Assembly (NCBI GenBank): GCA_028874795.1
Contig: JAPPHT010000070.1
Location: 3,519-67,518, forward strand
DNA from: Chloroflexota bacterium
Lineage (GTDB): Bacteria > Chloroflexota > Dehalococcoidia > Lucifugimonadales > Australimonadaceae
Direction: 5' to 3'
Length of the DNA: 64,000 nucleotides
In this document: positions 380 to 57,503 of the stretch, one piece after another
Layout: the number at the start of each line of letters is the position of its first letter
Numbering within the stretch: position 1 is the stretch's first letter
Position numbers and translations under genes: made by a program
The notes under the pieces: generated by a model
Told to the model about the DNA's origin: nothing
What the model saw: only the letters and a program-made list of their open reading frames with translations
The model's database searches: none

Positions 380-450
380 CCCTCTCCTGGGGGAGAGGGT
401 TAGGGTGAGGGCCCTGCGCGTGGTTGGGAGGAAAGCCAGGATGGGGGTGA
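380..450. repeat. Intergenic repeat modules (R6-type hairpin CCCTCTCC/GGAGAGGG + GGGTGAGGG)
   Basis: Shares the CCTCTCC..GGAGAGG hairpin and GGGTGAGGG box with more than 10 other spacers in the window. Confidence 0.7.
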
Positions 451-463
451 GTCGGGCCGTCCC

Positions 464-955
464 TCACTCGCGGTAGTTGACGTACTGCAGGGGCTGCTCG
501 ATGCCCATCTCCTTGATGAAGGCGATGACCTCCTGCAGGTCGTCGCGCTTCTTGCCGGACACCCGGAGTTCGTCGCCCTGTATCGCCAGTTGGACCCGGA
601 TCTTCGTCCCCTTCACGGCCTTGACAATCTTCCGCGCTAGGTCGCCGTCGATGCCCTGCCGGATGATGACCTGCTGACGGAGGCTGTCGCCGGTGGCCTT
701 CTGCGGCGTCTCGAACGAGAGCGACCGGCTGTCCACGTCGCGGCGGGCGAAGTACGTGTGGAGCAGGTCGTGCACCTGGCGGAGCTGGAGGTCGTTGTCG
801 GCGGTGACGGTGAGCGCGCTGCCGGAGCGTTCGACGCCCGCACGGGTGCCTTTGAGGTCGAAGCGCTGCTGCGTCTCGCGTTTCACGCCGTTGACGGCGT
901 TGTCCACCTCCGTGAGATCGACCTTTGATACAACATCGAACGACGGCATCTGCAA
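464..955 (-). CDS. yajQ: YajQ-family nucleotide-binding protein (UPF0234)
   Basis: 163 aa. MPSFDVVSKVDLTEVDNAV...QLAIQGDELRVSGKKRDDLQ matches the YajQ family over its full length. Confidence 0.9.
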   Translation of the reverse strand: MQMPSFDVVSKVDLTEVDNAVNGVKRETQQRFDLKGTRAGVERSGSALTVTADNDLQLRQVHDLLHTYFARRDVDSRSLSFETPQKATGDSLRQQVIIRQGIDGDLARKIVKAVKGTKIRVQLAIQGDELRVSGKKRDDLQEVIAFIKEMGIEQPLQYVNYRE

Positions 956-964
956 ACCTCCGGT

Positions 965-1894
965 TCAGGCGTTCTTCGCTCTGCGGGCCTGCCGCTCATA
1001 GTAGCGCACGTAGGAGACGACGACGGGCATGTAGGAGCGGTCGGCCTTCGCGGGGTCGGCGAAGAGGTGGGTGCGGACCTCAACCTCCATCTCGGCCTCG
1101 CTCTTGCCCGCGGCCATGCCGTCCTTGATGAGCTCGCCGAGCTCGATGGTGATGCGCTCGACGGCGTCGATAGCGAAGGCGGGGTTGGAGGCGAGGAAGC
1201 CGGAGTGGACGGGCAGGAGGTACTTCGGGGCGAGCTCACGCGCCTTGCGGATGGAGGCGATGCTGGCGTCGACGTCGAAGTAGGGAAGCGTCATCGGCGG
1301 GTCCGGGAGAAAGCGGGGCGGCTTGTAGTTGCCGAGGCCGTGCCCGCAGTAGAGCGCCTCGTTCGCCTCGTCGTAGACGCCGATGTGGTCCAGCGAGTGA
1401 CCAGGCATGAAGACGATGCGGTATGGCGCGCCGCTGCCGAAATCGAGCGTGTCACCGTCCTCGACGGTCGCCATGCGCTCGTCCGGTACGGGGAGGATGT
1501 CGCCGAAGACAGCCTCCCACGTTTCGCCGAAGACGTCCGCGGTGCCCGCGATGAGCCGGGCGGGGTCGCGCATGAAGGGCGCGCCGCGCGTGTGGAAGAC
1601 GGCTTTCGCGCGGGGAAGCTCCCGCACGAGCCAGCCGCTGCCCCCTGCGTGGTCTATGTGGATGTGCGACGGCACGATCCACTCTATGGCGTCCGTGTCG
1701 TGGCCCAGCTTGCGGATGGCGTCGAGCAGCTCCTCGGCGATGGACGTGGGGCCGGGGTCGAGGATCGCGGGGTGGTCGCCCGCGACGAACCACGCCGCGT
1801 GGGGCATCGCTCCGTCGGTGAAGAGCTCGGCTGTATCGCGTCCGTACTCGGTGCGGAACTCCCACACGCCGGGGAATATGCGCTCGGTCTCCAA
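965..1894 (-). CDS. MBL-fold metallo-hydrolase
   Basis: HIHIDHAGG (HxHxDH) motif. I place the start at TTG 1894, preceded by AAGGAGG plus 8 nt. The ORF-track start at 1996 reads through a repeat module (EVPAFAGTT). Confidence 0.8.
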   Translation of the reverse strand: METERIFPGVWEFRTEYGRDTAELFTDGAMPHAAWFVAGDHPAILDPGPTSIAEELLDAIRKLGHDTDAIEWIVPSHIHIDHAGGSGWLVRELPRAKAVFHTRGAPFMRDPARLIAGTADVFGETWEAVFGDILPVPDERMATVEDGDTLDFGSGAPYRIVFMPGHSLDHIGVYDEANEALYCGHGLGNYKPPRFLPDPPMTLPYFDVDASIASIRKARELAPKYLLPVHSGFLASNPAFAIDAVERITIELGELIKDGMAAGKSEAEMEVEVRTHLFADPAKADRSYMPVVVSYVRYYERQARRAKNA

Positions 1895-1957
1895 GGGGCG
1901 GGCCTCCTTCGGTGGAAGGATAGCCCGTAACGGAAGCGTTGTGTAAACGGAGCGCGA

Positions 1958-2073
1958 CTCCGTCGTCCCTGCGAAGGCGGGGACCTCGCAGCCCACCTCT
2001 CCCTCTGGGAGAGAGTCTGCCCTGAGCTTGTCGAAAGGGTCGCCACCGCAGGGCGGCGGGTGAGGGTGAACCG
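1958..2073. repeat. Composite ~115-bp repeat unit (R2 hairpin + long R6), inverted orientation
   Basis: Aligns nearly base-for-base with 5126-5242 and with the reverse complement of 24575-24684. Confidence 0.85.
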
Positions 2074-3513: not shown

Positions 3514-3545
3514 GGGGCTCGCCGCACGGCGAGCCCCTTCCGTCA
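3514..3545 (+). terminator. Hairpin downstream of the Rieske oxygenase gene
   Basis: 10-bp perfect stem GGGGCTCGCC-GCAC-GGCGAGCCCC, 27 nt after the stop. Only a short T tract (TT) follows. Confidence 0.4.
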
Positions 3546-3658
3546 TCCAGCGAAGGCTGGGACCTCGCTCCCTCTCCCCTGGTCCCCTCCACTTGAACCG
3601 CCCTTCGCCGAACGGTACGCTGCCCGCGTTGTCGCGGTTGCCATGGAAGGAGGGCCGT

Positions 3659-4030: not shown

Positions 4031-4122
4031 TCCGTCGCCATGCCCCATCACCCGTCATTCCAGAGTGACCGTCAGGTCACGCGGTGGGGTGCGGGGGCGG
4101 TGTCTGTCGAAGGGGCGTCCCT

Positions 4123-5052: not shown

Positions 5053-5242
5053 CCGTCATTCCAGCACCGACTGGAATCTAGGGTGCGCGGGCAGCGCACG
5101 ACGCGCCGCGAAGCGGACGCGCAACCTCCGTCGTTCCTGCGGAGGCAGGAACCTTGCAGCCCACCTCGCCCTCTGGGAGAGAGCCTGCCCTGAGCTTGCC
5201 GAACGGGTCGCCGCGCGACAGCGGCGAGTGAGGGTGAACCGG
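5053..5242. repeat. Repeat mosaic: inverted R1 (5053-5099) + composite R2/R6 unit (5126-5242)
   Basis: CGTCATTCCAGCACCGACTGGAATC hairpin, then CCGTCGTTCCTGCGGAGGCAGGAACC..CTCTGGGAGAGAG..CCTGAGCTTGCCGAACGGG..GAGTGAGGGTGAACCGG. Confidence 0.85.
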
Positions 5243-5327
5243 TGAGGTGTAGTGGGTGCGCGCTTGCGCGGCGGATGAGGGTTGGCGTGACGTGCTAATC
5301 TTCCCGCGCGGAGAAGGGGGTGTCGCC

Positions 5328-6581
5328 ATGCAACGATCGAATGGCTCGCTGACCATCCACGCGGGAAGAGTGCTAGACGGCACGGGCGCGGCAGCCGCAA
5401 CCAACGTCGTCGTGCGGATAGAGGGATCGCGCATCGCGTCGGTAGGCCCGGCTTCCGACGCCGAGCCCCCCGGCGGGCAGGTGCTCGACTTCCCAAACGC
5501 AACGCTCCTGCCCGGCCTGATCGACTGCCACACGCACACGAACATGCCGGGCGACGGCAGGCGCGGCGAGGACGTGCACCTCGTCGACGACGACGCCATC
5601 CGCCTGCTGCGCTCGGCGCACAACGTCGGGCGAGCCCTCGAGACCGGCGTCACAACCGTCTGCGACTGCGGAGGCTGGAACCAGACCACCTTCCGCCTCA
5701 AGGAAGGCCTGCAGCAGGGCGTGGTGCACGGCTCCCGGGTCCTCGCCTCCGGCCGCCCGATAACGGTCAGCGGCGGACACTGCTGGTTCATGGGCTCCGA
5801 GGCCGACGGCGTGGACGGCGTCCGGCACGCCGCGCGTCTGCTCATCAAGGAGGGCGCCGACTTCCTCAAGGTGATGGCGACCGGCGGCAGCACGCTCGGC
5901 AGCGACCCCTTCCGTCCCCAGTTCTCCCCAGAGGAGCTGACGACGATCTCGCTGGAAGGACACCGTCGCGACCGAAAGGTCGTCGCGCACTGCCGCTCGA
6001 ACGAGGCCATGCGGATGGTCGTCGACGCCGAATACGACGCGATCATGCACGGCTGGTTCACCGATGAACACGGCGCGCGGGTCTTCGACGAGCACCTGGC
6101 TGCCGACATCGCGTCTCGAGGCATCTGCGTGAACCCCACGCTGCAGATCACGCGCAGCCGCATTCCCATCCTCCAGGACCGCGTCGACCGCGGGGTTGCC
6201 ACCGATGAGGAGACGGCGATGCTGGACCGGATGCGCCGCGGCCACGCCACGACCCTCGAGCAGGTGGGCAAGTTGATCGAGCACGGCGTGCAGCTGATGG
6301 CCGGGTCCGACTGCGGATGGGGCGTTTACCCGTTCGGGCGCTTCGACCTGGAGCTCGCCGCGATGGTGGACGCGGGACTGACGCCCGCCGGAGCGGTCGC
6401 CTCAGCGACCGGAGGCAACGCCAGGGCGCTCGGCATCGACGATACGGTCGGCACCGTTGCGCCGGGCAAGGAGGCAGACCTGCTCATCGTCGACGGCAAC
6501 CCGGACGAACAGATCTCAGACGTCGCTCGCGTCCTCGCCGTCGTCAAGGCCGGACGGGTCGTCGTCAACAACGCCACCTGA
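5328..6581 (+). CDS. Amidohydrolase-family metal-dependent hydrolase
   Basis: LLPGLIDCHTHTN (HxH) plus later H/D ligands. ATG 5328 follows GAGAAGGGGG. Residues upstream in the ORF track lie in repeat DNA. Confidence 0.8.
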   Translation: MQRSNGSLTIHAGRVLDGTGAAAATNVVVRIEGSRIASVGPASDAEPPGGQVLDFPNATLLPGLIDCHTHTNMPGDGRRGEDVHLVDDDAIRLLRSAHNVGRALETGVTTVCDCGGWNQTTFRLKEGLQQGVVHGSRVLASGRPITVSGGHCWFMGSEADGVDGVRHAARLLIKEGADFLKVMATGGSTLGSDPFRPQFSPEELTTISLEGHRRDRKVVAHCRSNEAMRMVVDAEYDAIMHGWFTDEHGARVFDEHLAADIASRGICVNPTLQITRSRIPILQDRVDRGVATDEETAMLDRMRRGHATTLEQVGKLIEHGVQLMAGSDCGWGVYPFGRFDLELAAMVDAGLTPAGAVASATGGNARALGIDDTVGTVAPGKEADLLIVDGNPDEQISDVARVLAVVKAGRVVVNNAT

Positions 6582-6623
6582 TCCCTTCCCCTTGACGGGG
6601 GAAGGCGAGGATGGAGGTGAACC
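6582..6623. repeat. R4 module (inverted) directly after the amidohydrolase stop codon
   Basis: TCCCTTCCCCTTGACGGGGGAAGGCGAGGATGGAGGTGAACC. The same module occurs at 13416, 25982, 27580 and 31255. Confidence 0.85.
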
Positions 6624-7767: not shown

Positions 7768-8910
7768 TCAATAGACACCGGGGAAGATACGATACTTCAC
7801 CCGCGCCTTGTACTCTGCCCACTTCTCTTCGCCGTACTTCTCGGCGCAGTGCTTGTCGTCGTCGCGTTGGCGCGAGGTGAAGAGCGACACGATGAAGACG
7901 AAGTAGACCCACGCCCACGGATTGCCGAAGTGGCCGAACACCAGCGCGATCGAGAGCGACGCGAACCCCTCGCCCATGTAGTTGAAGTGCCGGGCAACGC
8001 CCCAGTAACCGCTGTACAGGATCTTGCGCTCACCGACCTCGATGTACTTCGGCTCGATGATGCCGAGGAACTTGCGGTCAGGGAACCGCTTGAACATGTA
8101 CTTCTGCATGTTCGCGCCGCGCGAAATGCTCCACCCGAACAGGAACAGCAGCGGCGTGCCGATGAGCCAGACGTACGTCCACGGCGCTGAGAACCCGGGG
8201 TCCGGGTGGGCGGCCATGCCCCACAGCGGAAGGATGAACAGCCATCCGTAGATGACGAGCCCGCCCCAGAACAGCATGAAGCCGAGCCGCTCGTGGATGA
8301 GGTCGTAGGTGTACAGCTGGACGCGCTCGAAGACGAAGTAGTCCGTGATGTAGAACGTGAAGAACGCCGCGTACAGGAACACGCCGGGGTTGGCGTCGGC
8401 GCCGAAGCGGTCGTAGTGGTACGCGGCCCCGGACAGCGCGTTGAGCGAGAGCATCGCCCCGCCGACGACGTAGAACCACATCTTGATGTCGAATCGGTCC
8501 TTGAACAGGGAGATCTCCCGCACCCGCCCGGTCCACAGCTCCGCCAGGGGGCCTTTCGTACTGTCGCCCTTCGGCTGGCTGAACACCGCCGCGATCGCGA
8601 AGATGAGCGTGAAGACCGTTCCGCCCGCCACAGAGTAGACCGACGCCCGGTAGAACCACTCGCGCGGCATCCCGGTGATCTCGGTAGCCCACACGACCAG
8701 CACGATAACGAACACCAGGAGGCCGTTCAGCCGGTAGTTGCGGGGTTGGCCGGTCGCCTCGTCGATGACGTAGCCGGGCACCCGCCGTGCGGGCAGGATG
8801 ATCTGCAACACGGCGAACACGGCGAAGATGATGAGCGGCGTGAAGAAACCCCAGACCGCTTCCGTCCCGGAAAGCTCGAAGAGGTGTTCGATGCCGAGCC
8901 ACTCAATCAT
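7768..8910 (-). CDS. ERG4/ERG24-type (sterol-reductase-like) polytopic membrane reductase
   Basis: 380 aa from ATG 8910 (GGAGG 8 nt upstream). Multi-TM. RFDIKMWF, LYSGYWGVARHFNYMGE and the C-terminal RQRDDDKHCAEKYGEEKWAEYKARVKYRIFPGVY resemble the ERG4/ERG24 signatures. Confidence 0.65.
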   Translation of the reverse strand: MIEWLGIEHLFELSGTEAVWGFFTPLIIFAVFAVLQIILPARRVPGYVIDEATGQPRNYRLNGLLVFVIVLVVWATEITGMPREWFYRASVYSVAGGTVFTLIFAIAAVFSQPKGDSTKGPLAELWTGRVREISLFKDRFDIKMWFYVVGGAMLSLNALSGAAYHYDRFGADANPGVFLYAAFFTFYITDYFVFERVQLYTYDLIHERLGFMLFWGGLVIYGWLFILPLWGMAAHPDPGFSAPWTYVWLIGTPLLFLFGWSISRGANMQKYMFKRFPDRKFLGIIEPKYIEVGERKILYSGYWGVARHFNYMGEGFASLSIALVFGHFGNPWAWVYFVFIVSLFTSRQRDDDKHCAEKYGEEKWAEYKARVKYRIFPGVY

Positions 8911-8984: not shown

Positions 8985-9075
8985 TCGTCATGCTGAGCGA
9001 AGCCGGAGGCGAAGTCCTGCGCCTCAGCACGCAACATCCTCTCGGGTGCGTCCGTCGTTCTCGCGAGGCCCACGC
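8985..9075. repeat. Degenerate R3/R2-type modules in the divergent spacer
   Basis: CATCGTCATGCTGAGCGAAGCCGGAGG..CAACATCCTCTC is the reverse complement of the module family seen at 15925-16018. Confidence 0.6.
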
Positions 9076-12490: not shown

Positions 12491-13489
12491 CTAGGCGCGG
12501 CGCAGTTCCGACAGCGCGTCGGATAGATCGTCCGCAAGCGGCGACTCGAATATCTTACGCTCTGTTTCGCCGGGAGGAAGCGCCACGTCCAGCCGCGCGG
12601 CGTGGAGGAAGTGCCGGGGCACCAGGGGCGAGCGTCTGCCGTAGACCGGGTCTCCCACGAGGGGGTGGCCGATGGAAGCGAGATGCACGCGTATCTGGTG
12701 CGTGCGCCCCGTGACCGGATGCGCCTCTACGAGCGTGAAGCTGCCGTGGGGCCCGCCGAAACGCTCCATCACCCGGTAGTGCGTGAGGGCAGAACGCCCT
12801 CCTTCCACGACCGCCATCTTCTTGCGCTCTTTCGGGTGCCTCCCTATCGGTGCGTCGATCTCGCCCTCTGCGTCGCGCATCGCCCCGGTCGTTAACGCGA
12901 CGTAAGACTTGTGGACGCTGCGTTCCTTCATCTGGCGCGAGAGGCTGCGGTGCGCCGCGTCGGTCTTGGCCACGACGATCAGGCCGGAGGTGTCCTTGTC
13001 CAGCCGGTGCACGATGCCGGGGCGCTCCACACCGCCGATGCCCGGCAGGTCCGGAACGAGCGCGAGCAGGGCGTTCACGAGCGTACCGTCCGGGTGCCCC
13101 GGCGCGGGGTGCACGGTGAGCCCGGCCGGTTTGTCCACCACGATGAGCTGGTCGTCTTCGTAGACGACGCCGACCGGGATGTCCTGCGGAGCGAGATCGA
13201 GTGGCGAAGGCGGAGGCACTACGACCACGACGACGTCGCCCCCTCGCACGACAGTCGACGGTTTGACGGGGCGCCCGTTCACCGTGACGCGTCCCTCCCG
13301 CGCAAGTGCGGCGGCCCGAGACCGGCTGAACGACGCATCCCGCGCCTGCACGAACGTGTCCACGCGGAAGCCGGCGTCGGCCTCGCTTGCGGTGAAGCGG
13401 ACTTCGCCTTCCGGCCCCTTCCCCCCCGATGGGGGAAGGTCAGGATGGGGGTGAACCGGCAGGATGGACGCGGTGTTACGCAAGGTCAT
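12491..13489 (-). CDS. rluD: RluA-family 23S rRNA pseudouridine synthase (RluD-type, with S4 domain)
   Basis: HRLDKDTSGL catalytic motif and S4-like SRSRAAALAREGRVTVNG. The ATG at 13489 overlaps the stop of the upstream gene (ATGA). The N-terminus contains a repeat module. Confidence 0.8.
   Translation of the reverse strand: MTLRNTASILPVHPHPDLPPSGGKGPEGEVRFTASEADAGFRVDTFVQARDASFSRSRAAALAREGRVTVNGRPVKPSTVVRGGDVVVVVVPPPSPLDLAPQDIPVGVVYEDDQLIVVDKPAGLTVHPAPGHPDGTLVNALLALVPDLPGIGGVERPGIVHRLDKDTSGLIVVAKTDAAHRSLSRQMKERSVHKSYVALTTGAMRDAEGEIDAPIGRHPKERKKMAVVEGGRSALTHYRVMERFGGPHGSFTLVEAHPVTGRTHQIRVHLASIGHPLVGDPVYGRRSPLVPRHFLHAARLDVALPPGETERKIFESPLADDLSDALSELRRA
13416..13457. repeat. R4 module lying inside the rluD coding sequence
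   Basis: CCCTTCCCCCCCGATGGGGGAAGGTCAGGATGGGGGTGAACC. Translated in frame as ..PVHPHPDLPPSGGKGP.. Confidence 0.8.
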
Positions 13490-15795: not shown

Positions 15796-15801
15796 GCGGC
15801 G

Positions 15802-16018
15802 CTGTCGTTCCTGTGGAGGCAGGAACCCCGTCTCCGAGCCATGCCCCCCTCCCCAGGGCTGCGAGATTCCCGCCTTCGCGCGAATGACGGGTGGTCCGAC
15901 AGGCTCACCATGAGCGGGAGACACCAGAGAGGATGTTGCGCGCTAAAGCGCGGGACTCCGCCTGTGGCTACGCTCAACATGACAGGGCAAGGTCCTCCGG
16001 CTTCGCTCAGCATGACGA
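15802..16018. repeat. Repeat mosaic: R2 (inverted), R1, GTCCGACAGGCTCACCATGAGCGG box, R3-type modules
   Basis: CTGTCGTTCCTGTGGAGGCAGGAACC; GAGATTCCCGCCTTCGCGCGAATGACGG; two ..GCTCAACATGAC / GCTCAGCATGAC units. Confidence 0.8.
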
Positions 16019-17582
16019 TCACCACCACACCCCCACGCGGTTGACGGGGCCCTTCGGCGGAGTGTCGTCTTCGTCACCGGGCGGGGGAAGGCGGTAGCCG
16101 AGGCTGATCCTGTTCGGCGATGCGCGGTCGTCGTCGAGGAAGGGCTCCGTGCCTGTCCAGATGCCGAACGACGGCGGGACGAGGAACGCGAGTGCGAGAG
16201 CATCCGCCTTGTCCGGCGAAGGCAGGCCGCGCTTGCGCATCTCCTTCTTGCCCTGCAGCCGGACCTGCCCTGAACTCGATACGTCGTAGCGCAGCGACAG
16301 CAGTTGGCCCGCGAGCTCCTCGTCACGCGGCAGCGCGAGCAGGCCGTCGTTCAGGAGCATCCGGATCTCCCAGAAGAACTCGGAGCGCATGTTGAAGAAG
16401 CGCGTGCGGTGCGGCGCGCGCCCGCCGAAGTGCACGCCGTAGACCGGCGCGCCAAGCTCCCGCAGCCGGTCCACGACGCCCCCGCCGACGCCGCCCTCGT
16501 CCACAAAGACCGCCTCCGCGCCCGTCCACTCCACCGTCCGCAGCACCTCGTGGACGAGCCGCATCGTGTCCATCTTCGTGAACGAGCGCAGGTCCAGCAC
16601 GCGCTCGCCCTGCCGGACGCAGATAGCCGACTTATCGAAACCGAAGCGCCCCACGTCGACGCCCACGTAGACGGGTAAGCGGGGGTCGAGCAAACCCTCA
16701 CCCGCCGCGCTGCTGCGCGCCGACCTCTCCCCCGGGAAGAGGTGTGTCTGGCTCCCCTCGCCCTCTGGGAGAGGGGCCAGGGGTGAGGGTTGCTCCCCGC
16801 GCTCCATGGCGGCCTCGACCGCTTCGCGTCCGACGAGCGAGTCGTCCTGCGCATCCGGGAACTCGGCGAGGACGGCGGACGCGTAGTAGGGGTGGTCTTC
16901 CGACCAGTCGAGGGCCAACTCCTCGGCATCCTCGGGCGTGACGACCCCGGGGAGGCCGCCGTTCTCGCCGGTGAAGTTGGGCGTGTCGTAGGCGGAGATG
17001 TGGATGCGGTGGTAGCGCGCCCGCCGGGAGTGGTGGGACTCGTAGAACTCGCCGTCGAGCGACATGGCGTTGCCCACGAGCAGGAGACGCGTTGGGTGGA
17101 GGCGCTTGATGGCGTCCATCTGGTCCTGCGGCATGGCGTGGGCCTCCGTGACGACGACGAGCAATTCCGGTTGAGTGGAAGCCCTGGATGTTGCACGCCC
17201 TGTTGGTGGAGAAACCGAGCGCGAACCGTTTCTCATCGACGCGGTACGCGGACTTGAGCATGGCGCCGCTGAGGCGTTCCTCGGCCGCGGCGTAGGCTTC
17301 GCGCATCTCCTGCCAGACGATCTCCTCCACCTGGCGCTGCGTGGGGCCGGTGACGAGGGCCTTGGACTCCAGGCTCGTCTCGGTCCACCAGAGCACGGCG
17401 CGCGCCGCCGTCCAGTCCTTGCCGGAGCCGTTCGCGCCGACAACGGAGACGCGCCGGTGTTCCACGAAGGCTTCGAGCATCTCGGCCTGCTTTGAGTACG
17501 GCCTGCCGGCGTCGCCGAGCACGTCAGTCACGAAGCCGACGGGGTCGTCCCTGTATCGCGTGAGGTCTTCTGCCACGGGCAC
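16019..17582 (-). pseudogene. Phage terminase large subunit, disrupted by a frameshift and carrying an in-frame repeat insertion
   Basis: The N-terminal ATPase (VVGANGSGKDW Walker A ... NIQGFH) is in the frame of ORF 16698..17582. Walker B (LLVVVTEAH) and the RNaseH-like nuclease (VGVDVGRFGFDKSAI, FVDEGGVGG, SPDKADALALAF) are in the frame of ORF 16019..17443. The switch lies near 17165-17185. Confidence 0.7.
16691..16792. repeat. Head-to-head pair of R6 modules inserted in the terminase pseudogene
   Basis: AACCCTCACCC (16693-16703) and GGGTGAGGGTT (16781-16791) flank two CCTCTCCC/GGGAGAGG-type hairpins. 102 nt, in frame. Confidence 0.8.
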
Positions 17583-17650
17583 ACCTTCTCCACCCGGTTA
17601 CACCTTTCGTCACCCGGATAACCGCGGTCGCGTGACCGCTGTCACCCCGG

Positions 17651-17689
17651 TTAACGAGAAAGCCCCCTCTTGCTCTTCGCTGAGGGGGC
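17651..17689 (-). terminator. Intrinsic-terminator-like hairpin upstream of the terminase remnant
   Basis: On the minus strand: GCCCCCTC, a 12 nt loop, GAGGGGGC, then TTTCTCGTT. Confidence 0.4.
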
Positions 17690-17815: not shown

Positions 17816-17843
17816 GCAGCAATAGCTTCGGAGGGCGTAAGTA

Positions 17844-18284: not shown

Positions 18285-18308
18285 ACGAGAACCTACGGGA
18301 GGCGCGAG

Positions 18309-19404: not shown

Positions 19405-19660
19405 TGGTGAGGCCGATCACTGTCATTCCGGACGAAGCGCAGCGGAGTTGAGGAATCTCTCGGGGAACGCATCGCACACACGAACACCCGAGAGATGTTT
19501 CGACTCCGCCTCTGGCTCCGCTCAACATGACATCCCCGTCCACCTCCCCTCACCCCTGGGCGCCCACAAGGGACGCCCCTACACCCGGACCCATCCACCC
19601 TACCTCCTAACCCGTGCGGCCTGGCGGCCACTCTGGATTCCCGCTTTCGCGGGAATGACG
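19405..19660. repeat. Repeat mosaic: R3 (inverted) + R3 + R5 + R1
   Basis: R3 at 19487-19537, R5 GGGCGCCCACAAGGGACGCCCCTAC at 19558-19582, R1 at 19629-19660. Confidence 0.85.
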
Positions 19661-20145
19661 GATGGGGCGGGGATGTGGGAGATAACAGAAGTGCCGGAGT
19701 GGCCTCTCGACCGCTCCGGCACTGGTTGGTGCCCCGCGATTAGCGGGGCTCACCTTCCGCTCCGTTGCCGCTCCCGGCAATCACTACCGGACTCAGGCCG
19801 CCTCGGGCTCATCGAGCCGTTCCGGGCGCTTCTGCCTGCCTGCTTATAGCGGAGCTTCCGGCTTCCGTCTGCCCTCCTCCGGCAACGCTCAGGCCGCCGG
19901 GAGGGCCGTACAGGGGAAGTGCCACCGGTGATGCAGCACGTAGACCGCGCGTATGCCCATGGTGCACCTCCCTTCGTCAGTTCCGGTTCTTCGGAGGGGC
20001 GACCACCCACCGCCCGCTCCGTACCGTTCCACTCCACTGTAGGACTCGCCGCGGGGACATGCAACCCCTATGGAGGCGGATTTTCCTGCGGATTTCACGC
20101 AGATTTGTGAAATCGATAACGATTTCCGGGTCTTGACAGCTATCG

Positions 20146-20178
20146 CGCTCTGGATTCCAGCTTTCGCTGGAATGACGG
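20146..20178. repeat. R1 variant
   Basis: CGCTCTGGATTCCAGCTTTCGCTGGAATGACGG. Compensatory changes keep the stem. Confidence 0.8.
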
Positions 20179-23559: not shown

Positions 23560-23700
23560 AGGGGGCGCGCTGAAGCGCGGGAGAGATTTCTCGACTCCGT
23601 TGCACTCCGCTCGAAATGACAAGCCCTGCTCCGGCCCGCCCGCCACAGGGCCCTCACCCGCCGCCTCCGGGCGGCCCTCTCCCTCATGAGAGGTAGGCGG
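23560..23700. repeat. Repeat mosaic: GCGCGCTGAAGCGCG hairpin + R3 + R6
   Basis: R3 at 23581-23626. R6 CCCTCACCCGCCGCC..CCCTCTCCCTCATGAGAGG at 23651-23693. Confidence 0.8.
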
Positions 23701-23733
23701 ACGCCCGGCCCTCCCCGCACATCGCCCGCAGTA

Positions 23734-23781
23734 CCCCCTCCCTAGCCCTCTCCCCTTGTAGGGAGAGGGCTAGGGAGGGGG
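23734..23781. repeat. Perfect 21-bp-arm palindrome immediately upstream of moaD-moaE
   Basis: CCCCCTCCCTAGCCCTCTCCC-cttgta-GGGAGAGGGCTAGGGAGGGGG. Followed directly by TATAAT (23782-23787). Confidence 0.9.
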
Positions 23782-23793
23782 TATAATCCGGGC

Positions 23794-24574: not shown

Positions 24575-24933
24575 CCACCCTCACCCGCTGCGCAAGCGCA
24601 TAGACCCGTTGACAAGCTCAGGGCAGGCCCTTCCCTGAGGGCGAGGTGAGCTGCGAGGTTCCTGCCTTCGCAGGAACGATGAGGAACCCCGAGAGATTTC
24701 TCGACTCCGCTGCGCTCCGCTCGAAAATGACAAGCCCTGCCCCACGTCCCCGCGGAGGACCCTCACCCGCCGCGCAAGCGCGTCGACCCGTTCGGCAAGC
24801 TCAGGGCAGGCTCTCTCCCCGAGGGAGAGGTGGCAGGCACCCCCTCCCCAAGCCATCCCGCCGTGTGGCCTGACGGCCACTCTGGATTCGCGCCTTCGCG
24901 AGAATGACGGTGAAGGGCAGGAACGACGAGGTC
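24575..24933. repeat. Repeat mosaic: composite R6/R2 unit + R3 + long R6 + R1 + partial R2
   Basis: 24575-24684 composite, 24691-24737 R3, 24760-24838 long R6, 24877-24910 R1. The whole 380-bp spacer is repeat-derived. Confidence 0.85.
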
Positions 24934-25672: not shown

Positions 25673-25696
25673 CGCTGTCTCCTTCGTTCGTTGCGT

Positions 25697-26097
25697 AGTT
25701 CTTCCCACCCACCCGCCCGGTACGTTGTGGGGGACACCCCTCACACCGCGGGCTAAAGCCCGTGGCAAAGGGGTCCCCCTCTGCACTCCCCGGTTCCCCT
25801 CACCGCGCGCTGAAGCGCGTTGCCCTCTCCCTTCAAAGGAGAGGGGGCCGGACCGGGCGCCCACGAGGGACGCCCCTACATCGGACGCCGCCCAGCCACG
25901 CCACCGAGGGACCTCACCCACGCGCTGAAGCGCGTCCCCCTCTCCCTCAGGAGAGGGGGTCAGGCGCCCCACCCCGCGCCCGGTTCACCCCCAATCCTAA
26001 CCTTCCCCCATCAAGGGGGAAGGGACCAGGCACTCCCACACCCCACCAATCGTGTGCGCTGGCACGCACTCTGGATTCCCGGCTTCGCGGGAATGAC
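25697..26097. repeat. Repeat mosaic: R7 + R6 + R5 + R6 + R4 + R1
   Basis: R7 GTAGTTCTTCCCACCCACCCGCCC (also at about 31153), R6 at 25797-25848 and 25908-25955, R5 at 25855-25879, R4 at 25982-26030, R1 at 26067-26097. Confidence 0.85.
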
Positions 26098-27384: not shown

Positions 27385-27655
27385 GCCGAGCCCAGCCCCG
27401 CCGTGTGCCCTGCGGGCACGCTGGATGTCAGCCTTCGCTGGCATGACGGGGGGCTGCGCCCCGCGTCTGGTTCGCCCTCACCCGCCGCGCAAGCGCGCCG
27501 ACCTCTCCCATGGGGCGACGTGGGTCAGACAGGGCGCCCACAAGGGACGCCCCTACGCCAGACAACCCACCGCTCCGCCGGTTCACCCCCATCCTAACCT
27601 TCCCCCGTCGAGGGGGAAGGGATCAGGCGAGGTTCCTGCCTGCGCAGGAACGACG
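27385..27655. repeat. Repeat mosaic: R1 variant + R6 + R5 + R4 + R2
   Basis: 27417-27449, 27475-27524, 27532-27556, 27580-27627, 27631-27655. Confidence 0.85.
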
Positions 27656-28153: not shown

Positions 28154-28195
28154 GGACGTCCTCCTTAACGAGGCCTCAGGCAGGAGGGACGAAGA

Positions 28196-28386
28196 GGGCA
28201 CCCACGAGGGACGCCCCTACACCAGGCCCCCAGCCCACACCCCAAGGGCCCTCACCCGCCGCTTCGCGGCACCCTCTCCCTCAGGAGAGGGAATCGGACA
28301 CCCTCCCCACTCCACCGCGAGCGGCCCGCTGTGAGCGCTGTATGCCCTGGCGGGCACTCTGGATTCCCGCCTTCGCGGGAATGACG
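28196..28386. repeat. Repeat mosaic: R5 + R6 + R1
   Basis: 28196-28220, 28249-28291, 28355-28386 (preceded by the GCCC-TGGC-GGGC hairpin). Confidence 0.85.
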
Positions 28387-29280: not shown

Positions 29281-29317
29281 CGCCTACCCTCCTCAGCTTG
29301 TGGGGATGCCCCCCATC

Positions 29318-29397
29318 GGGCGCCCACGAGGGACGCCCCTGCACCGAACAGATCGTGCCCCGCGCCGAGGGCCGTCTCCCTCAGGAGAGGGGGACCA
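29318..29397. repeat. R5 + partial R6 inside the dioxygenase operon
   Basis: GGGCGCCCACGAGGGACGCCCCTGC and CCGTCTCCCTCAGGAGAGGGGG, between the 76-aa ORF and the beta-subunit gene. Confidence 0.8.
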
Positions 29398-31149: not shown

Positions 31150-31460
31150 GCGGGAGTAGTTCTTCCCACCCACCCGCCCTGAACGCTGTGGCGGTACCCC
31201 TGCTCCCCCGGCAGAGGGGTTCCTCTGCACTGCCCGGCCATACGCCGACTCACCGGTTCACCCCCATCATGGCCTTTCTCCATCAAAGGGGAAGGGACCG
31301 GGAGAGGATGCGAGGTTCCTGCCTCCGCAGGAACGACGGAGCACCCCCACTACTACCTCGCCGCCACAGGGCCCTCACCCTGACGCTCTCCCCTTGTAAG
31401 GAGAGGGGACCAGGCCCCGAGAGATTCCTCGGCTGTGCTCGCGGTGACGGGGCTCGTTTC
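31150..31460. repeat. Repeat mosaic: R7 + R4 + R2 + R6 + R3 upstream of nusA
   Basis: R4 at 31255-31302, R2 at 31314-31339, R6 at 31374-31410, R3-like at 31426-31460. Confidence 0.8.
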
Positions 31461-36812: not shown

Positions 36813-36833
36813 CCCTTACCCGCCGACAGCCGC

Positions 36834-37020
36834 GAGCCCTCTCGACTCCGCTGCGCTCCGCTCGAAGTGACAAGCCCGCCCCAGTCGCTGCCGCGAGCCC
36901 TCACCGCCCACCCATCCCCCGACCAAGTACCCTCACCCGCCGCGCAAGCGCGTCGACCTCTCCCCGAGGGAGAGGTGGGCAAGGGAGGGATGCGTGGTTC
37001 CTGACTTCGCAGGAACGACG
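36834..37020. repeat. Repeat mosaic: R3 + R6 + R2
   Basis: 36834-36877, 36930-36980, 36996-37020. Confidence 0.85.
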
Positions 37021-37084
37021 GGGACGGGGGAACGGCATATACTGAGCGGGCCGTCCGCGAGCGGACGGGGGGACGTACGAGCAC

Positions 37085-41180: not shown

Positions 41181-42482
41181 ATGGCCGTCCTCACTCCACG
41201 CGGAAAGCCGTTCTACGGGTGGACCGTCGTCAGCGTGCTCGGTGTGTTCGGGGCCGTGGGGGTTGGCCTCGCGGGTCCGAACTTCGCGCTGTTCATCGTC
41301 CCGGTGTCGGAGGAGCTCGGGTGGAAGTCATCGACTTTCGGCTGGGCATTCTTCCTTCGATTCCTCATGGTCCTCGCCGCGGGCCCGCTGATCGGACGGC
41401 TGATAGACCTCCGGGGGCCGCGCCTGCCGGTCGTCGGCGCGCTGCTCGTGGCGGGAGGCGCGGTGCTCTGGCTGTCGCGCATCGCGGCCGCCTGGGAGCT
41501 GATGGCGGCGTTCATGCTCATCGGGCTGGTGGGCATGGGGCGCGCGAACGACCTGCAGGCCGGCGCGTCGATAGCCAAGTGGTTCGTCCGGCGACGCGGG
41601 CTCGCCATGGGCATCGCTCTCGGAGGCACGCCGCTCGGCGTGGCGGTCTACTACCCGCTCACGCAGCTGCTGATCGACAACGCGGGTTGGAGGGGCGCGT
41701 TGGTGTGGCTCGCGGTCTCGGGTATAGCCGTCGCCGTACCGCTGTCCCTGTTGCTCCGGCGTCAGCCGGAAGACGTGGGGCTGCTTCCCGACGGGGACGC
41801 ACCGTCGTCCGGTGCGTCCTCAGGCGCCAGCGGCGCTCCGCTGCGCGCAGCTCCTTCCGAGGAGCGGTCGCTTACGCGCAGGGAGGCGATGCGCACGGGG
41901 CGATTCTGGCTGATGCTGGGCGGCTTCACGGCGATGACCTACGGCGTGTCCACGCTCGCCATCTTTCGCGTGCCGCACTTCGTCGAGCGCGGGCTCGACC
42001 CCGGGCTCGTGGCTATCGCCATCTCCGTAGACGCGGTCATCGCCGTCGTTGCGAGCGTGCTGCTCGGCAGGGTGCTGGACCGCGCGCCGGTGCGCACGGT
42101 ACTCCTGGGCGGCATCGCGATCGGGGCTCTCTGCGCAGTGGGGCTGCTCGTCGCGGGGAGCGTCTTCTGGCTGTTCGCGGCGAACATCTTCTATGCGCTT
42201 GGATTCCAGAGCACGCACGTTGCCCAGAGCGTCATGTGGGCGAACCAGTTCGGCAGGAGGCACCAGGGCGACCTGCGCGGGTTCACCATACCGGTTACAG
42301 TGGGCGTGGGGGCGGTGGCGTTCCCGGTGACGGGGTACCTTCGGGACGCCGCGGACACCTACACGCCCGCGTGGTTCGTTGCCATAGGCGCGCTGGCTGT
42401 TGCGGGGGTGCTGCTGATGGCGGTCCGTCCGGTCCACCCTCACCCGCCGCTGCGCGGCGGGCTCTCCCCTGGGGAGAGGTGA
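41181..42482 (+). CDS. MFS transporter
   Basis: 433 aa, about 12 TM, KPFYGWTVV N-terminus, PLIGRLIDLRGPR loop motif. Confidence 0.8.
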   Translation: MAVLTPRGKPFYGWTVVSVLGVFGAVGVGLAGPNFALFIVPVSEELGWKSSTFGWAFFLRFLMVLAAGPLIGRLIDLRGPRLPVVGALLVAGGAVLWLSRIAAAWELMAAFMLIGLVGMGRANDLQAGASIAKWFVRRRGLAMGIALGGTPLGVAVYYPLTQLLIDNAGWRGALVWLAVSGIAVAVPLSLLLRRQPEDVGLLPDGDAPSSGASSGASGAPLRAAPSEERSLTRREAMRTGRFWLMLGGFTAMTYGVSTLAIFRVPHFVERGLDPGLVAIAISVDAVIAVVASVLLGRVLDRAPVRTVLLGGIAIGALCAVGLLVAGSVFWLFAANIFYALGFQSTHVAQSVMWANQFGRRHQGDLRGFTIPVTVGVGAVAFPVTGYLRDAADTYTPAWFVAIGALAVAGVLLMAVRPVHPHPPLRGGLSPGER

Positions 42483-42484
42483 GC

Positions 42485-42633
42485 GAAGGGACACCCACAA
42501 GGGGCGCTCTGACACCGGACGAGGTTACGCGCCAAAGCGCGGGCCTTCGCAGGAACAACGGAACCTCTCAACCCTGCCTCGCCCCGTGTGCCCTGCCCGG
42601 GCACGCTGGATTCCCGCCGGTGCGGGAATGACG
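42485..42633. repeat. Repeat mosaic: degenerate R5 + partial R2 + R1 upstream of ffh
   Basis: R1 CACGCTGGATTCCCGCCGGTGCGGGAATGACG at 42602-42633, preceded by the GTGCCC-TGCCC-GGGCAC hairpin. Confidence 0.8.
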
Positions 42634-44039: not shown

Positions 44040-44142
44040 GCGAGGCACCTGCCTCCGCAAGAACGACGGGGTTGCGCGCCCGCCTCGCGGCGCGTCGTGC
44101 GCTGCCCGCGCACCTTGGATTCCCGCCGGTGCGGGAATGACG
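44040..44142. repeat. Degenerate R2 + R1 downstream of ffh
   Basis: GGCACCTGCCTCCGCAAGAACGACGG and CACCTTGGATTCCCGCCGGTGCGGGAATGACGG (44111-44142). Confidence 0.8.
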
Positions 44143-44143
44143 G

Positions 44144-50496: not shown

Positions 50497-50525
50497 CAGA
50501 GATTCCCGCCTTCGCGGGGATGACG
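50497..50525. repeat. R1 module abutting the MFS reading frame
   Basis: CAGAGATTCCCGCCTTCGCGGGGATGACG. Its TGA (50521-50523) is the stop that opens the MFS frame. Confidence 0.8.
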
Positions 50526-52589: not shown

Positions 52590-52825
52590 AGGGAGACCCA
52601 CAGGGGACGTGTGGGTGATGACGCATTCCAAAGCTGAGGTGAACCTGCGCGGCTCTGGACCGGAGGTCACGAGTTGCCTGGAGGCGTAAAGTATGTCTCC
52701 GAACACCCGTAAACCATGTCTCCGTTCCATACACCTCCAGGGAGTGAGGGCCGGAACCCTATGCCTCTCCCCACCGCGTGCGCTGTCGCGCACCCCGGAT
52801 CTCCGCGCTCGCGGGAATGCGAACC

Positions 52826-55304: not shown

Positions 55305-55341
55305 CAGAGATTGCTCGACTCCGCTGAGAATGACAGTCGCC
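55305..55341. repeat. Shortened R3 module
   Basis: CAGAGATTGCTCGACTCCGCTGAGAATGACAGTCGCC. Confidence 0.7.
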
Positions 55342-55405
55342 CTACCTACCTTGGAGTACTCTCTCCATTGGAAGCAGTGGGAGCGACGAGGCATATAATG
55401 CGGAG

Positions 55406-56074
55406 GTGAGTATCCCCTTCCGCGCCATCGTCTTCGATTTCGACGGACTGATAGTCGACTCCGAGCAGCCCATCTACGAGGCGTACCGTACCCTCTTTGC
55501 GGAGCTTGGCGCGACGCTGCCGTTGAGCGTCTGGCAGGACGTGATAGGCAGCAGCACCGCGAACGCCGCGGCCTTCGTCCACCTGGAGAACAGCATCGGG
55601 CGGAAGGTCGATCGAGAGGCGATGCGCCAGCAGGCGCGGGCGATCCGCGGGGAAGGGACGCTCACGCTTCCACCGCGTGAGGGCGTCGCCGAACTCATCT
55701 CCGAAGCGAAGCAGGCCGGACTCACGCTCGCGGTGGCGTCGAGCTCGACGTTCGCGTGGGTGAACGGCCACCTCGACCGACTGGGGCTGCTCTCGTCGTT
55801 CGACGCCCTCTGCACACGAGAGGATGTGGAGGAGACGAAGCCACACCCCGCGCTCTACCAACTTGCGCTCGAACGGCTGGGCATGGCGCCGCACGAGGCG
55901 TTCGCCATCGAAGACTCGCCGAACGGCGTGACGGCGGCGAAGTCGGCAGGGCTGCGCTGCGTCGCCGCGCCGAACCCGATCACCGCGGGCATGGACCTGC
56001 GCCACGCGGACCACGTGCTGCCGTCGCTCGCGGGCGTCTCGCTCGCACAGGTCGTCGCGGGGCTGGTGGGATAG
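55406..56074 (+). CDS. HAD-superfamily hydrolase (subfamily IA, beta-phosphoglucomutase-like)
   Basis: IVFDFDGLIVDSE (DxDG), VASSS, EDSPNGVTAAKSAG motifs. Confidence 0.8.
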   Translation: MSIPFRAIVFDFDGLIVDSEQPIYEAYRTLFAELGATLPLSVWQDVIGSSTANAAAFVHLENSIGRKVDREAMRQQARAIRGEGTLTLPPREGVAELISEAKQAGLTLAVASSSTFAWVNGHLDRLGLLSSFDALCTREDVEETKPHPALYQLALERLGMAPHEAFAIEDSPNGVTAAKSAGLRCVAAPNPITAGMDLRHADHVLPSLAGVSLAQVVAGLVG

Positions 56075-56082
56075 AGCAACCC

Positions 56083-57357
56083 CTACTTCGTCGGCGACGG
56101 CGCCCAGAAGGCGAGACGCCCCTCGCCGATGGGGCGTGGGTCTTCACTGCCGACCGCGTCCACGACCCAGACCTGCCGAGCGGCGCCCCGCTCGATCACG
56201 CCAGAGAACACCAGCGTCGTAGAGTCGGCCGACCAGACAAGGTGCGACGGCGCGAACTGGTCGAAGAACTGCACGTGGGTGAGGAAGTCCGCGGACGGGA
56301 TGAACCGGGCACGCCGACGCGATTCCCCTGAGGTGAGGTCGATCACCCGCCATTCCATGGGACCATCGACGGTCACGTAGGCGATGCGGGAGCCGTCCGG
56401 CGACCAGTAGAAGGCCGCCACCCGTTCGCGCACGAGCGGCTCATTCGCTCCTGCGCCGTCCCCGTCGACGACGTGGAGGTCGTCGTACAGCACGGCGGAG
56501 AACCCCTTGGTGCCGACAGCGACGCTCCCGCCGCCGGGCGACCACGCGAACGCGGCCTCGCCGGGGATGTCCATCAGCGGGACGCGGTCGCTCCCGTCGA
56601 GGTTCGATGTGACGAGCCGGCCTGCGCCGTCCTCCTCGACGACGTAGGCGATGCGATCGCCGTCCGGGCTGAACGCGGGAACGCGGTAGCGGAGCGAGTC
56701 CGCGCCGAGGTCCGTCGTGGAGCGGTCGCGGGTGTCGTGGAGCAGCAGCTCCCCCCGGCGGTGAACGAGGATGTACCTCCCGTCCGGCGACCACACGTGG
56801 TAGAGCGGCGCGTCGGCCGCGACCTCGTAGGGTCCGCCGTCGCCGGGCCGGACGACGAAGAGGCCGAGCCCCTGGCCGGGGCCTCGCGGCGCGACGAACG
56901 AGAGGGTCTCCGAGGTCGGGGCCCAGAGGGCGTAGTGCGGAGCGCCGGTGGCGACGAGGGGAATGGCGAGCGGGTGCGTCTCGTGCAGCGGCCGCGCCGC
57001 CGAGCCTTCGGCGTCGAACAGCACGAGGCTGGCAAGCGCTCCTCCGCCGATGCCCGGCGTGCGCGAAACGGCGACGCTCCCCCCATCCGGTGACCACGTT
57101 GGCCAGGTGTAACGGACGCGCTGCTCCTGCTGCGACCGGAGCGCAACGTCGGTGCCGGTGACGCCGGGCGTGCGCCCGCCGGTGAGACGTGCCGGATTGC
57201 TGCCGTCGCCCTGCACGGTCCAGATGTCGAACCGTGGCCCGACGAAGACGATCCGCTGGCTGCCGGAGGGTTCCGGGGGTGCGGGCTCGCCGCTGCTGCA
57301 CGCCGCTACGGCGAACAGACCGGCAGCGATGAGCGCGGTGCGCGGCAGTAGCCTCAA
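56083..57357 (-). CDS. TolB-like beta-propeller (PD40/WD40-like repeat) lipoprotein
   Basis: Repeated ..WSPDG..IAY.. blades. Start set at TTG 57357 (AGGAGA 8 nt upstream), giving MRLLPRTALIAAGLFAVAACSS with a lipobox. The ORF-track start at 57438 lies in repeat DNA. Confidence 0.7.
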   Translation of the reverse strand: MRLLPRTALIAAGLFAVAACSSGEPAPPEPSGSQRIVFVGPRFDIWTVQGDGSNPARLTGGRTPGVTGTDVALRSQQEQRVRYTWPTWSPDGGSVAVSRTPGIGGGALASLVLFDAEGSAARPLHETHPLAIPLVATGAPHYALWAPTSETLSFVAPRGPGQGLGLFVVRPGDGGPYEVAADAPLYHVWSPDGRYILVHRRGELLLHDTRDRSTTDLGADSLRYRVPAFSPDGDRIAYVVEEDGAGRLVTSNLDGSDRVPLMDIPGEAAFAWSPGGGSVAVGTKGFSAVLYDDLHVVDGDGAGANEPLVRERVAAFYWSPDGSRIAYVTVDGPMEWRVIDLTSGESRRRARFIPSADFLTHVQFFDQFAPSHLVWSADSTTLVFSGVIERGAARQVWVVDAVGSEDPRPIGEGRLAFWAPSPTK

Positions 57358-57371
57358 CCTGGCCGTCTCCT

Positions 57372-57503
57372 GAGAGATGCTTCGAATGCGCCTCAAGGCT
57401 ACGCCCTTCGGCTTCGCCCGGCATGACAGCCCCCACACCCCGCTCCGCCGTGGAGAGCCCTCGCCGCGCGCCGGAGCGCGTTGCCTGCTCCGTCAGGAGA
57501 GGG
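57372..57503. repeat. R3 variant + R6 variant
   Basis: GAGAGATGCTTCGAATGCGCC..GCATGACAGCCCCC and CCCTCGCCGCGCGCCGGAGCGCG..CTCCGTCAGGAGAGGG. Confidence 0.7.

Follow-up and report, generated by a model that had tools for sequence, protein, structure and literature searches.

Repetitive extragenic palindromic elements (REPs) are short hairpins of non-coding DNA, one foot of which bears an unpaired tag. In the GTAG REPs, a GT[AG]G tetranucleotide stands 5' of a fully paired hairpin with a stem of 6-13 bp and a loop of 2-5 nt. The CGTC-1 class of Di Nocera et al. (2013) is defined by a terminal CGTC, sometimes TGTC (or CCTC), by a stem of 8 bp with A-T at its first two pairs, by a loop of 4 nt and by a short CCA tail, and it has been equated with the Neisseria repeat dRS3 (PMC3733652), for which the consensus is ATTCCC-N8-GGGAAT (PMC1797815). 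Clustered elements have been noted in Thermomicrobium roseum, Neisseria and others (PMC3733652), and intergenic mosaic arrays are already known as neisserial intergenic mosaic elements (NIMEs) and bacterial interspersed mosaic elements (BIMEs). The Y1 HUH transposase of IS200/IS605 acts on single-stranded hairpins (PMC6006769), and REP-associated tyrosine transposases (RAYTs) are its REP-associated relatives; GTAG REPs and REPINs are expected to have a cognate RAYT gene within their genome, usually with REPs on its flanks. For IS200/IS605 itself, single-strand transposition at the replication fork and a replication-linked orientation bias have been described (PMC3971601; PMC3333891). The mechanisms of REP dissemination are called poorly understood in a recent TnpA-REP paper (PMC8266576). 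Here we describe mosaic arrays of such elements, built from modules designated R1 to R7, in a stretch of 64,000 nucleotides (hereafter, the window) of contig JAPPHT010000070.1, from a bacterium of the Dehalococcoidia. The repeats themselves are of a known kind, as is their mosaic intergenic arrangement, which an earlier reading made from the letters of the window (the sequence-only reading) had pointed out. What is new here is their head-to-tail polarity with respect to the replication strand, their turnover at hot spots and their host lineage.

Modules were detected by mismatch scans, by profile hidden Markov models (HMMs) built from window copies and, for R1, by a covariance model. The non-redundant catalogue comprises 61 modules in 26 clusters (Table 1). 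Module bases amount to 2.46 kb (3.8% of the window) and cluster spans with linkers to 3.41 kb (5.3%), close to the earlier estimate of about 4 kb, or 6%. All copies of R1 to R7 listed by the sequence-only reading were found again within about 5 nt, including the weaker ones at 4053, 19487, 55305 and 57372. Its statement that the repeats fill most intergenic spacers holds if spacers are counted (of the 38 that measure at least 40 nt, 23 have a module) but not if bases are, since the non-coding DNA totals 9.85 kb and modules account for about 25% of it. Shuffled controls gave about zero matches for R1, R3, R4 and R7, and the full R6 profile gave 14 matches at E<0.05; the half-motif R6b alone is not significant, with 54 matches against 23 expected. 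The view that this is a structured repeat family rather than low-complexity drift is borne out.

The reverse complement of R1 reads CGTC-ATTCCCGC-GAAG-GCGGGAAT-CCA. It forms an 8-bp stem starting AT around a 4-nt loop (ATTCCCGC / CTTC / GCGGGAAT on the other strand), and its tail, ...GGGAAT-CCAGAG, fits the unpaired CCA. On the plus strand, the terminal tetranucleotide is GACG (CGTC on the complement) in ten of 11 copies and GACA in the remaining one. The hairpin fits the dRS3 consensus exactly. By these features R1 is classed as a CGTC-1/dRS3-type REP with an extra hairpin upstream, GTGSCC-N3-4-GGSCAC; this second hairpin, already remarked upon in the sequence-only reading, is real and covaries, and it sets R1 apart from CGTC-1. 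In tag, stem, loop and CCA tail, and in being dispersed and intergenic in many phyla, the two agree. CGTC-1 REPs are, however, described as mainly head-to-head dimers (PMC3733652), whereas the window has only one head-to-head CGTC pair (15804/15862), every other copy being single and co-oriented. R2 (GTTCCTGC) likewise has an 8-bp stem and a 4-nt loop, with tags GACG, GATG or GACA; because its stem starts G-C, it is counted as a CGTC/TGTC variant of CGTC-1. R3, read in reverse complement, starts TGTC-ATTTC and has a GAAAT that compensates; it is probably a long-loop variant of the same class.

The reverse complement of R5, GTAG-GGGCGTCC-CTYGT-GGGCGCCC, has an 8-bp stem with one T.G pair and a 5-nt loop, and its guide tag is GTAG in four of five copies and GCAG in the fifth. 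As judged from this layout, R5 is a standard GTAG REP with its guide tetranucleotide at the hairpin foot, the plan seen in the short G+C-rich hairpins of GTAG REPs, REPINs (REP doublets forming hairpins) and BIMEs (PMC2817692, PMC3333891, PMC6006769). REPINs differ in being inverted doublets; in the window inverted doublets are not the main form, each of the five R5 copies standing singly on the plus strand, and no RAYT gene was seen. The family is thus not nameless: the definitions published for REPs with CGTC and GTAG tags cover R1, R2 and R5 (PMC3733652), and that of dRS3 also covers R1 (PMC1797815). R4 and R6 are a related pair, for which no published name was found in the literature: in both, a polypyrimidine/polypurine hairpin, CCYTCYCC-N3-5-GGRGARGG, comes after a head rich in C (CCCTCACCC or TTCACCCCC). 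R7 is a C-run linker. It contains CCCACCCACCCGCCC (25695-25718 and 31156-31179), a textbook G-quadruplex motif on the opposite strand, and nine of the ten C-run quadruplex-type motifs of the window lie inside REP clusters, which are C-rich (skew -0.137) on an otherwise G-rich strand.

The modules are thus REPs in mosaic arrays, each array joining three to six different modules head to tail. NIMEs resemble these arrays in interleaving dRS3-type hairpins with many short repeat families and in varying at syntenic sites (PMC1797815), but there each repeat-sequence (RS) unit is bracketed by dRS3, whereas the window has several types of tagged hairpin in succession; neither this bracketing nor the alternating REP orientation of BIMEs occurs in the window arrays. 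Within the Chloroflexota, the GTAG-23 elements of Thermomicrobium roseum are also clustered with small G+C-rich palindromes, CCGSSCC-N3-4-GGSSCGG, which by text description rather than sequence resemble the hairpin ahead of R1; GTAG-23 forms few large blocks, unlike the clusters found over most spacers of the window (PMC3733652). Small, non-coding, dispersed and polymorphic units could also be classical miniature inverted-repeat transposable elements (MITEs), that is, deletion derivatives of insertion sequences moved by a DDE transposase. We regard this as very improbable, as the units are single hairpins of 25-75 nt with a tag at one end rather than elements of 100-400 bp with terminal inverted repeats, the polymorphic junctions that were read have no target-site duplications, and the window holds no parent insertion sequence. 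CRISPR arrays were also considered and rejected: the regular R5 arrays of three relatives (L197, L198 and L127) have identical 'spacers', which makes them tandem duplications, and the clusters of the window are irregular.

Module orientation is set by position along the window. To the left of about 15.84 kb, all 13 modules lie in minus orientation, and to the right 46 of 48 lie in plus orientation (Fisher p=1.6e-11), the two exceptions being one arm of an inverted R3 pair and one perfect palindrome. The sequence-only reading had taken the modules to be shuffled and in both orientations; what is observed instead is one polarity switch, at about 15.8 kb. The minus orientation extends 3.5 kb past the left edge of the window, as seen in L091 (L-numbers denote the external loci and contigs of relatives and other genomes used for comparison, about 2.6 Mb of loci). 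Plus-oriented modules occur between plus-strand genes and between minus-strand genes alike, and modules are present in seven of 10 divergent and six of eight convergent spacers, and equally in tandem ones. Among external 8-kb loci, 20 of the 33 with at least three modules are purely co-oriented, and module orientation is unrelated to gene strand (p=0.48). An orientation that is blind to transcription, together with equal occurrence across spacer types, points to an effect at the DNA level.

The corresponding DNA-level variable appears to be replication strand. The raw GC skew of the window mainly reflects a coding-strand effect and the membrane-protein genes at 58-63 kb; for this reason skew was measured at third codon positions (GC3 skew), after subtraction of the coding-strand term. 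At 36 of 41 genome loci, the residual GC3 skew has the sign that module orientation predicts (p=7e-6), and the orientation-linked effect, about +/-0.10, exceeds that of the coding strand. An independent set of metagenome loci, chosen by R1 rather than R5, is concordant in 14 of 16 cases (p=0.012), for a combined 50 of 57 external loci (p=4e-9). Within the window, the residual skew is about -0.03 in the left arm and +0.09 in the right, with the sign as expected, and the 23S rRNA gene of the right arm is co-oriented with the modules. When written as in the sequence-only reading, with the hairpin followed by a 3' CTAC or GACG, modules stand on the G-rich strand, presumably the leading one. In the literature searched, replichore polarity was found reported neither for REPs nor for NIMEs. 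In E. coli, inverted pairs put a REP on each strand (PMC3333891). Any strand preference would be hidden in E. coli and Pseudomonas because their REPs sit in inverted pairs; one is visible in this lineage because the REPs are single and co-oriented.

We consider it reasonably likely that these REPs, in their NIME/BIME-like arrays, are non-autonomous and are moved as single-stranded hairpins by an enzyme encoded elsewhere, in a strand-specific manner at the replication fork. In such a scheme, modules would be handled in trans as single-stranded DNA, and the enzyme would most likely be a RAYT/IS200-type Y1 HUH transposase whose gene lies in another part of the genome. Insertion or retention would be restricted to one particular strand at the fork, and landing would be preferentially beside or inside resident hairpins, a combination that would yield both co-oriented clusters and polarity at the scale of a replichore. 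IS200/IS605 elements offer a parallel in their hairpin-plus-guide architecture and in their orientation bias with replication direction (PMC3971601), although they differ from the modules, which encode nothing and measure 25-75 nt, and which place the tag-first strand opposite to the simple IS608 expectation.

Several observations weigh against this scheme. As the sequence-only reading had noted, no transposase or RAYT gene, and more broadly no Y1 gene, is present in the window by Pfam searches of large open reading frames (ORFs) and of gene calls. In the approximately 2.6 Mb of fetched loci, a strict HUH...Y regular expression gave no candidates and a relaxed one a single irrelevant candidate, and phmmer searches with approximate RayT and IS608 TnpA queries gave weak matches without Pfam support. 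In a published survey, CGTC REPs were without a dedicated transposase (PMC3733652). The C-rich strand, the presumed leading-strand template, is the one that reads tag first (5' GTAG or CGTC, then hairpin), whereas a simple analogy to IS608 would predict the active strand on the lagging-strand template instead. Moreover, the skew of the left arm is weak beside that of the right, replication direction is inferred from skew and rRNA orientation only, and orientation-dependent loss, rather than oriented insertion, could be the source of the polarity.

That orientation follows the replication strand is also what would be seen if the modules, or their G- or C-rich parts, were polar chromosome signals marking replichore direction for a DNA translocase, a recombination system or fork handling, in the manner of Chi or of FtsK-orienting polar sequences (KOPS). 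The strong C-richness of the clusters on the G-rich strand, with their quadruplex-type motifs, would suit such a role, as would the presence within R4 of GGGAAGGG, which fits the E. coli KOPS consensus, GGGNAGGG. Known polar signals, however, are short, conserved and mostly intragenic, whereas the modules are diverse, hairpin-forming, confined to spacers and quickly replaced; identical modules occur in phyla of very different composition, and they are without a known protein partner. We thus give this explanation little credence.

As single-stranded DNA, R1, R2, R5 and short R6 fold at z scores of -2.5 to -4, while the fold of R3 is weak (z=-0.8). A covariance model of R1 with both hairpins returned 104 matches in the window and Chloroflexota loci. 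Across 100 distinct rows of R1/R2 copies, the share of paired cells is 96.3%; column shuffles give 80.5%, and slid partners 32-54%. Fitting of the alignment to the model inflates these figures somewhat, but the slid controls are far lower. Two-sided changes affect 12 of 14 pairs (147 cells). These data support the maintenance of the R1/R2 hairpins by compensatory change, as the sequence-only reading had claimed for variant copies. The further claim of selection on structure holds insofar as the hairpin is maintained; covariation does not distinguish the RNA from the DNA level, and it does not demonstrate an RNA under selection.

Stable, covarying hairpins, many of them downstream of genes, might nonetheless be host-selected RNA elements that serve, once transcribed, to terminate transcripts, to stabilise their 3' ends or to mark where they are processed, roles proposed for REPs in the literature (PMC3733652). 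Such an explanation seems improbable. Modules are as frequent in divergent (promoter) spacers as in convergent ones, and since their orientation is independent of the direction of transcription, transcripts would carry them in either sense. Between 15 and 32 kb there are eight terminator-like sites against 6.4 expected, none of which is a module hairpin, and the modules have no T-tract. The window has no Rfam match at gathering thresholds, and at E<=1 the interval 19.3-31.6 kb gives only spurious microRNA matches on a long palindrome. In addition, close relatives differ in module content at the same gene ends.

These differences between relatives are considerable. L176, whose flanking genes are 86-92% identical to the window in nucleotide sequence, has R1, R3, R5 and R6 in the spacer orthologous to 31.1-31.5 kb, where the window has R7, R4, R2 and R4. 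In the spacer at 36.8 kb, R6 and R2 are kept in L176 while the R3 of the window is replaced by R1. Orientation matches the window in both L176 spacers despite the different content. The cluster at 15796-16056 is missing from the orthologous spacer of L213, which is 50 nt long, in a relative whose aldolase (P0002) is 94% identical in protein sequence. At a single site within a terminase-like ORF, five genomes have five module sets: an R6 inverted pair in the window, a CGTC pair in L213, an R2/R5 tandem array in L127, two R3 copies in L160 and, in L164, a CGTC element with a GTAG element nested in its loop. Different modules at orthologous sites imply that modules are gained, lost and replaced at hot spots, and the nested element implies that they can insert into one another. 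By comparison of these sequences, turnover between relatives is fast. Tandem arrays of composite REP units occur in relatives with periods of 57, 95 and 75 nt (L197 5400-5780, L198 3830-4430 and L127 540-800), and L190 4650-6300 is a further long array; inverted R3 pairs also form arrays in relatives. Alternating tandem arrays are present in L198 and L190, and L197 and L198 have tandem arrays of alternating REP pairs, as in BIME-2. By analogy, these long arrays resemble the products of BIME-2 amplification.

The swapping of whole modules between conserved neighbours is also the pattern expected from cassette exchange of the NIME type, in which a site-specific recombinase acting at dRS3-like hairpins would change the arrays by recombination with incoming DNA and not by single-strand transposition. 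This is the main rival to the fork-coupled scheme. The hairpin of R1 fits the dRS3 consensus; in Neisseria, syntenic arrays differ in how many and which repeats they contain, and dRS3 is used for integration by a phage recombinase (PMC1797815); in the window, the polarity switch adjoins a phage-type terminase gene and a variable island. A double-strand recombinase alone, however, does not explain an orientation that follows skew over tens of kb in many genomes. No recombinase gene is present in the window, and most modules (R4, R5 and R6) are without flanking dRS3-like sites. On balance, we judge cassette exchange unlikely.

The exact R5 25-mer occurs in at least eight phyla, the matches listed including Dehalococcoidia, other Chloroflexota, Latescibacterota, Gemmatimonadota and Acidobacteriota, as well as Armatimonadota, Planctomycetota, Omnitrophota and Bacteroidota metagenome-assembled genomes (MAGs), many of them from sponge symbionts; REP sequences are usually described as species-specific. 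Because their flanks are unique, R5 copies are dispersed within each genome. The R1 31-mer is found in metagenome contigs of 29% to 72% GC, and the exact 26-mer core of R1 in 88 contigs of a viral collection. Two metagenome contigs of about 30% GC (L273 and L280) have five co-oriented copies of a TGTC-type R1 hairpin, spaced 39-90 nt apart, and judging by their sequences this hairpin is kept nearly unchanged against the AT-rich composition of the host. All module types occur together in Chloroflexota loci, while in other phyla R5 is found alone or as inverted doublets, spaced about 80 nt apart in Gemmatimonadota. The sequence-only reading had mentioned similar repeat-derived peptide strings from other uncultured high-GC lineages, and the module sequences are indeed present in such lineages; a literature search with the peptide strings gave no match.

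The change from minus to plus at about 15.8 kb is the pattern expected at a replication origin, and the sign of the GC3 skew changes likewise. A recent inversion was rejected as the cause, gene order across the switch being conserved in L213, L214 and L215, and the same polarity switch is present in L213. A canonical oriC or dif was also rejected, as neither a DnaA-box cluster nor a dif-like site was found at the switch. L215 (ENA ERZ24894574 ctg6912c, a contig of 2.39 Mb), whose aldolase is 79% identical in protein sequence to that of the window, is colinear through the switch site and has zero modules; its GC skew is extreme and uniform, about -0.3 over 21 kb. Because of this colinearity and uniform skew, the site is not a conserved origin in L215. 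In L164 and L127, where the surrounding genes differ, a similar switch in both modules and GC3 skew adjoins a terminase-like homologue, a comparison based on few genes, and L160 has no switch. L160 is a contig of 19 kb, assigned to a Palauibacter bin, that resembles Dehalococcoidia DNA.

A broader proposal can be put forward only tentatively, and we would sooner doubt it than rely on it. REPs in these Dehalococcoidia, and probably elsewhere, may be polarised over whole replichores as the footprint of strand-specific, fork-coupled spread; the switch at about 14-16 kb may mark a replication origin; and identical REPs of 25-31 nt in at least eight phyla may imply spread of the moving enzyme between phyla. 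If polarity holds on complete chromosomes, it would argue for a single-strand, fork-coupled mechanism and would provide a cheap marker of replication direction for uncultured genomes.

Table 1. Positions of REP modules and clusters in the window, with strand (a point where the feature has no single orientation) and evidence
Position	Strand	Feature	Evidence
377..411	-	R4/R6-type unit, hairpin CCCTCTCC-TGG-GGGAGAGGG with GGGTGAGGG head	HMM match; 13 external matches
1960..2067	-	Cluster R2 (CGTC-tagged) and R6 long form, divergent spacer	Scans, HMM
3540..3567	-	R2-like CGTC REP between Rieske and glyoxalase genes	HMM E=2e-5; gene calls
4049..4084	-	Partial R1	Covariance model E=1.4e-6
5053..5282	-	Cluster R1, R2, R6 long form, R6 head	Scan, HMM
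6577..6618	-	R4, convergent spacer	Scan, HMM
8987..9016	-	Partial R3	HMM E=5e-5
13411..13452	-	R4 within probable false N-terminal extension of pseudouridine synthase ORF	Scan, HMM
15804..15890	.	Inverted pair, tags outward: R2(-) 15804-15830 and R1-type(+) 15862-15890, at polarity switch	
15954..16016	+	Two partial R3 copies	HMM
16694..16790	.	R6 inverted pair (CCCTCACCC ... GGGTGAGGG) inside terminase-like ORF	
19421..19661	+	Cluster R3(-)/R3(+) inverted pair, then R5, R1	Scan, HMM
20145..20178	+	R1 variant, compensated stem ATTCCAGC/GCTGGAAT	Scan, covariance model
23581..23694	+	R3 and R6, divergent spacer	Scan, HMM
23731..23784	.	24-bp perfect palindrome, R4/R6 type (TACCCCCTCCCTAGCCCTCTCCCC-TTGTAG-...), 57 nt upstream of moaE/thiS fusion gene; TATAAT directly after	DNA fold z=-7.2
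24577..24910	+	Cluster R6 long, R2, R3, R6 long, R1, convergent spacer	HMM
25695..26097	+	Cluster R7, R6/R4, R5, R6, R4, R1, between two minus-strand genes	HMM
27403..27655	+	Cluster R1, R6 short, R5, R4, R2	HMM
28194..28386	+	Cluster R5, R6, R1	HMM
29315..29344	+	Single R5, tag variant CTGC	Scan, HMM
31156..31413	+	Cluster R7, R4, R2, R4	HMM
36833..37021	+	Cluster R3, R6, R2	HMM
42436..42633	+	Cluster R6, degenerate R5/R2, R1 (loop CGGT)	Scan, HMM, covariance model
44041..44143	+	R2 and R1, convergent spacer	Scan, HMM
50499..50525	+	R1/R2-type CGTC REP, divergent spacer	Scan, HMM, covariance model
52777..52819	+	Divergent R1 copy with both hairpins	HMM; covariance model; E=1e-13
55306..55335	+	Partial R3	HMM E=1e-5
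57372..57428	+	R3 with internal insertion	HMM E=3e-8

The arrays also affect annotation. They cause spurious ORFs and, as the sequence-only reading had warned, false N-terminal extensions across repeats (for instance, an ORF at 24935-25972 where the called gene spans 24935-25672), together with at least one probable false tRNA call, and they likely break short-read assemblies. The tRNA in question is tRNA-Ser(tga), called by ARAGORN at 25795-25870 on the minus strand. This stretch consists of R6/R4/R5 hairpins, and Rfam gives no tRNA there at E<=1; the call is probably false and caused by the repeats.

The variable island beside the switch, 15796-21077, lies between a threonine-aldolase-like gene and mgsA. 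It contains the terminase-like gene, a DUF5678 gene and a retropepsin-like gene, and its non-coding DNA, in pieces of 1.2 kb and 1.0 kb, includes the window's most AT-rich stretches. The same site is occupied in relatives by a DNA methyltransferase (L214) or an OLD/AAA_15-type pair (L215). The terminase-like gene, at 16019-17527 on the minus strand, is a lone gene resembling phage terminase large subunits (phrog_2, E=6.6e-18), with the REP insertion hot spot in mid-gene; in the window, its ORF is not called in frame beyond 17134. Its copies in other MAGs (L213 11062-12609; L127, L160 and L164) are 80-85% identical in nucleotide sequence. Within the non-coding DNA, 19689-19971 matches L215 14075-14348, a segment immediately downstream of mgsA in that contig, at 72.6% identity. 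The minus strand of 19689-19971 is strongly structured (RNA fold z=-4.0) and has no Rfam match; the segment may represent a structured element, RNA or DNA, that has yet to be described.

The remainder of the window, which is 64-71% GC along its 64 kb, has ordinary chromosomal gene content, including NusA, IF-2, TruB, Ffh, DnaG, RpoD, Fpg, MgsA and cytochrome oxidase, as well as many ring-cleaving and amidohydrolase enzymes. The interval 11078-32442 is 99.99% identical to contig DAOUIU010000034.1 of MAG GCA_034423295.1, and the host is a Dehalococcoidia bacterium of 67% GC. A 23S rRNA gene starts at 63766 on the plus strand (63766-64000 in the window) with no 16S gene upstream, the preceding 6 kb being occupied by minus-strand cytochrome oxidase genes; thus, the rRNA genes appear to be unlinked. 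Close relatives come from sponge-metagenome assemblies. The window encodes two proteins of eukaryote-like families, an RCC1-repeat protein and an ERG4/ERG24-family sterol reductase homologue (38975-41056 and 7768-8910, both on the minus strand), and a relative encodes a leucine-rich-repeat protein of 890 aa (L184 2351-5020). Such eukaryote-like protein families fit a host-associated, sponge-dwelling lifestyle.

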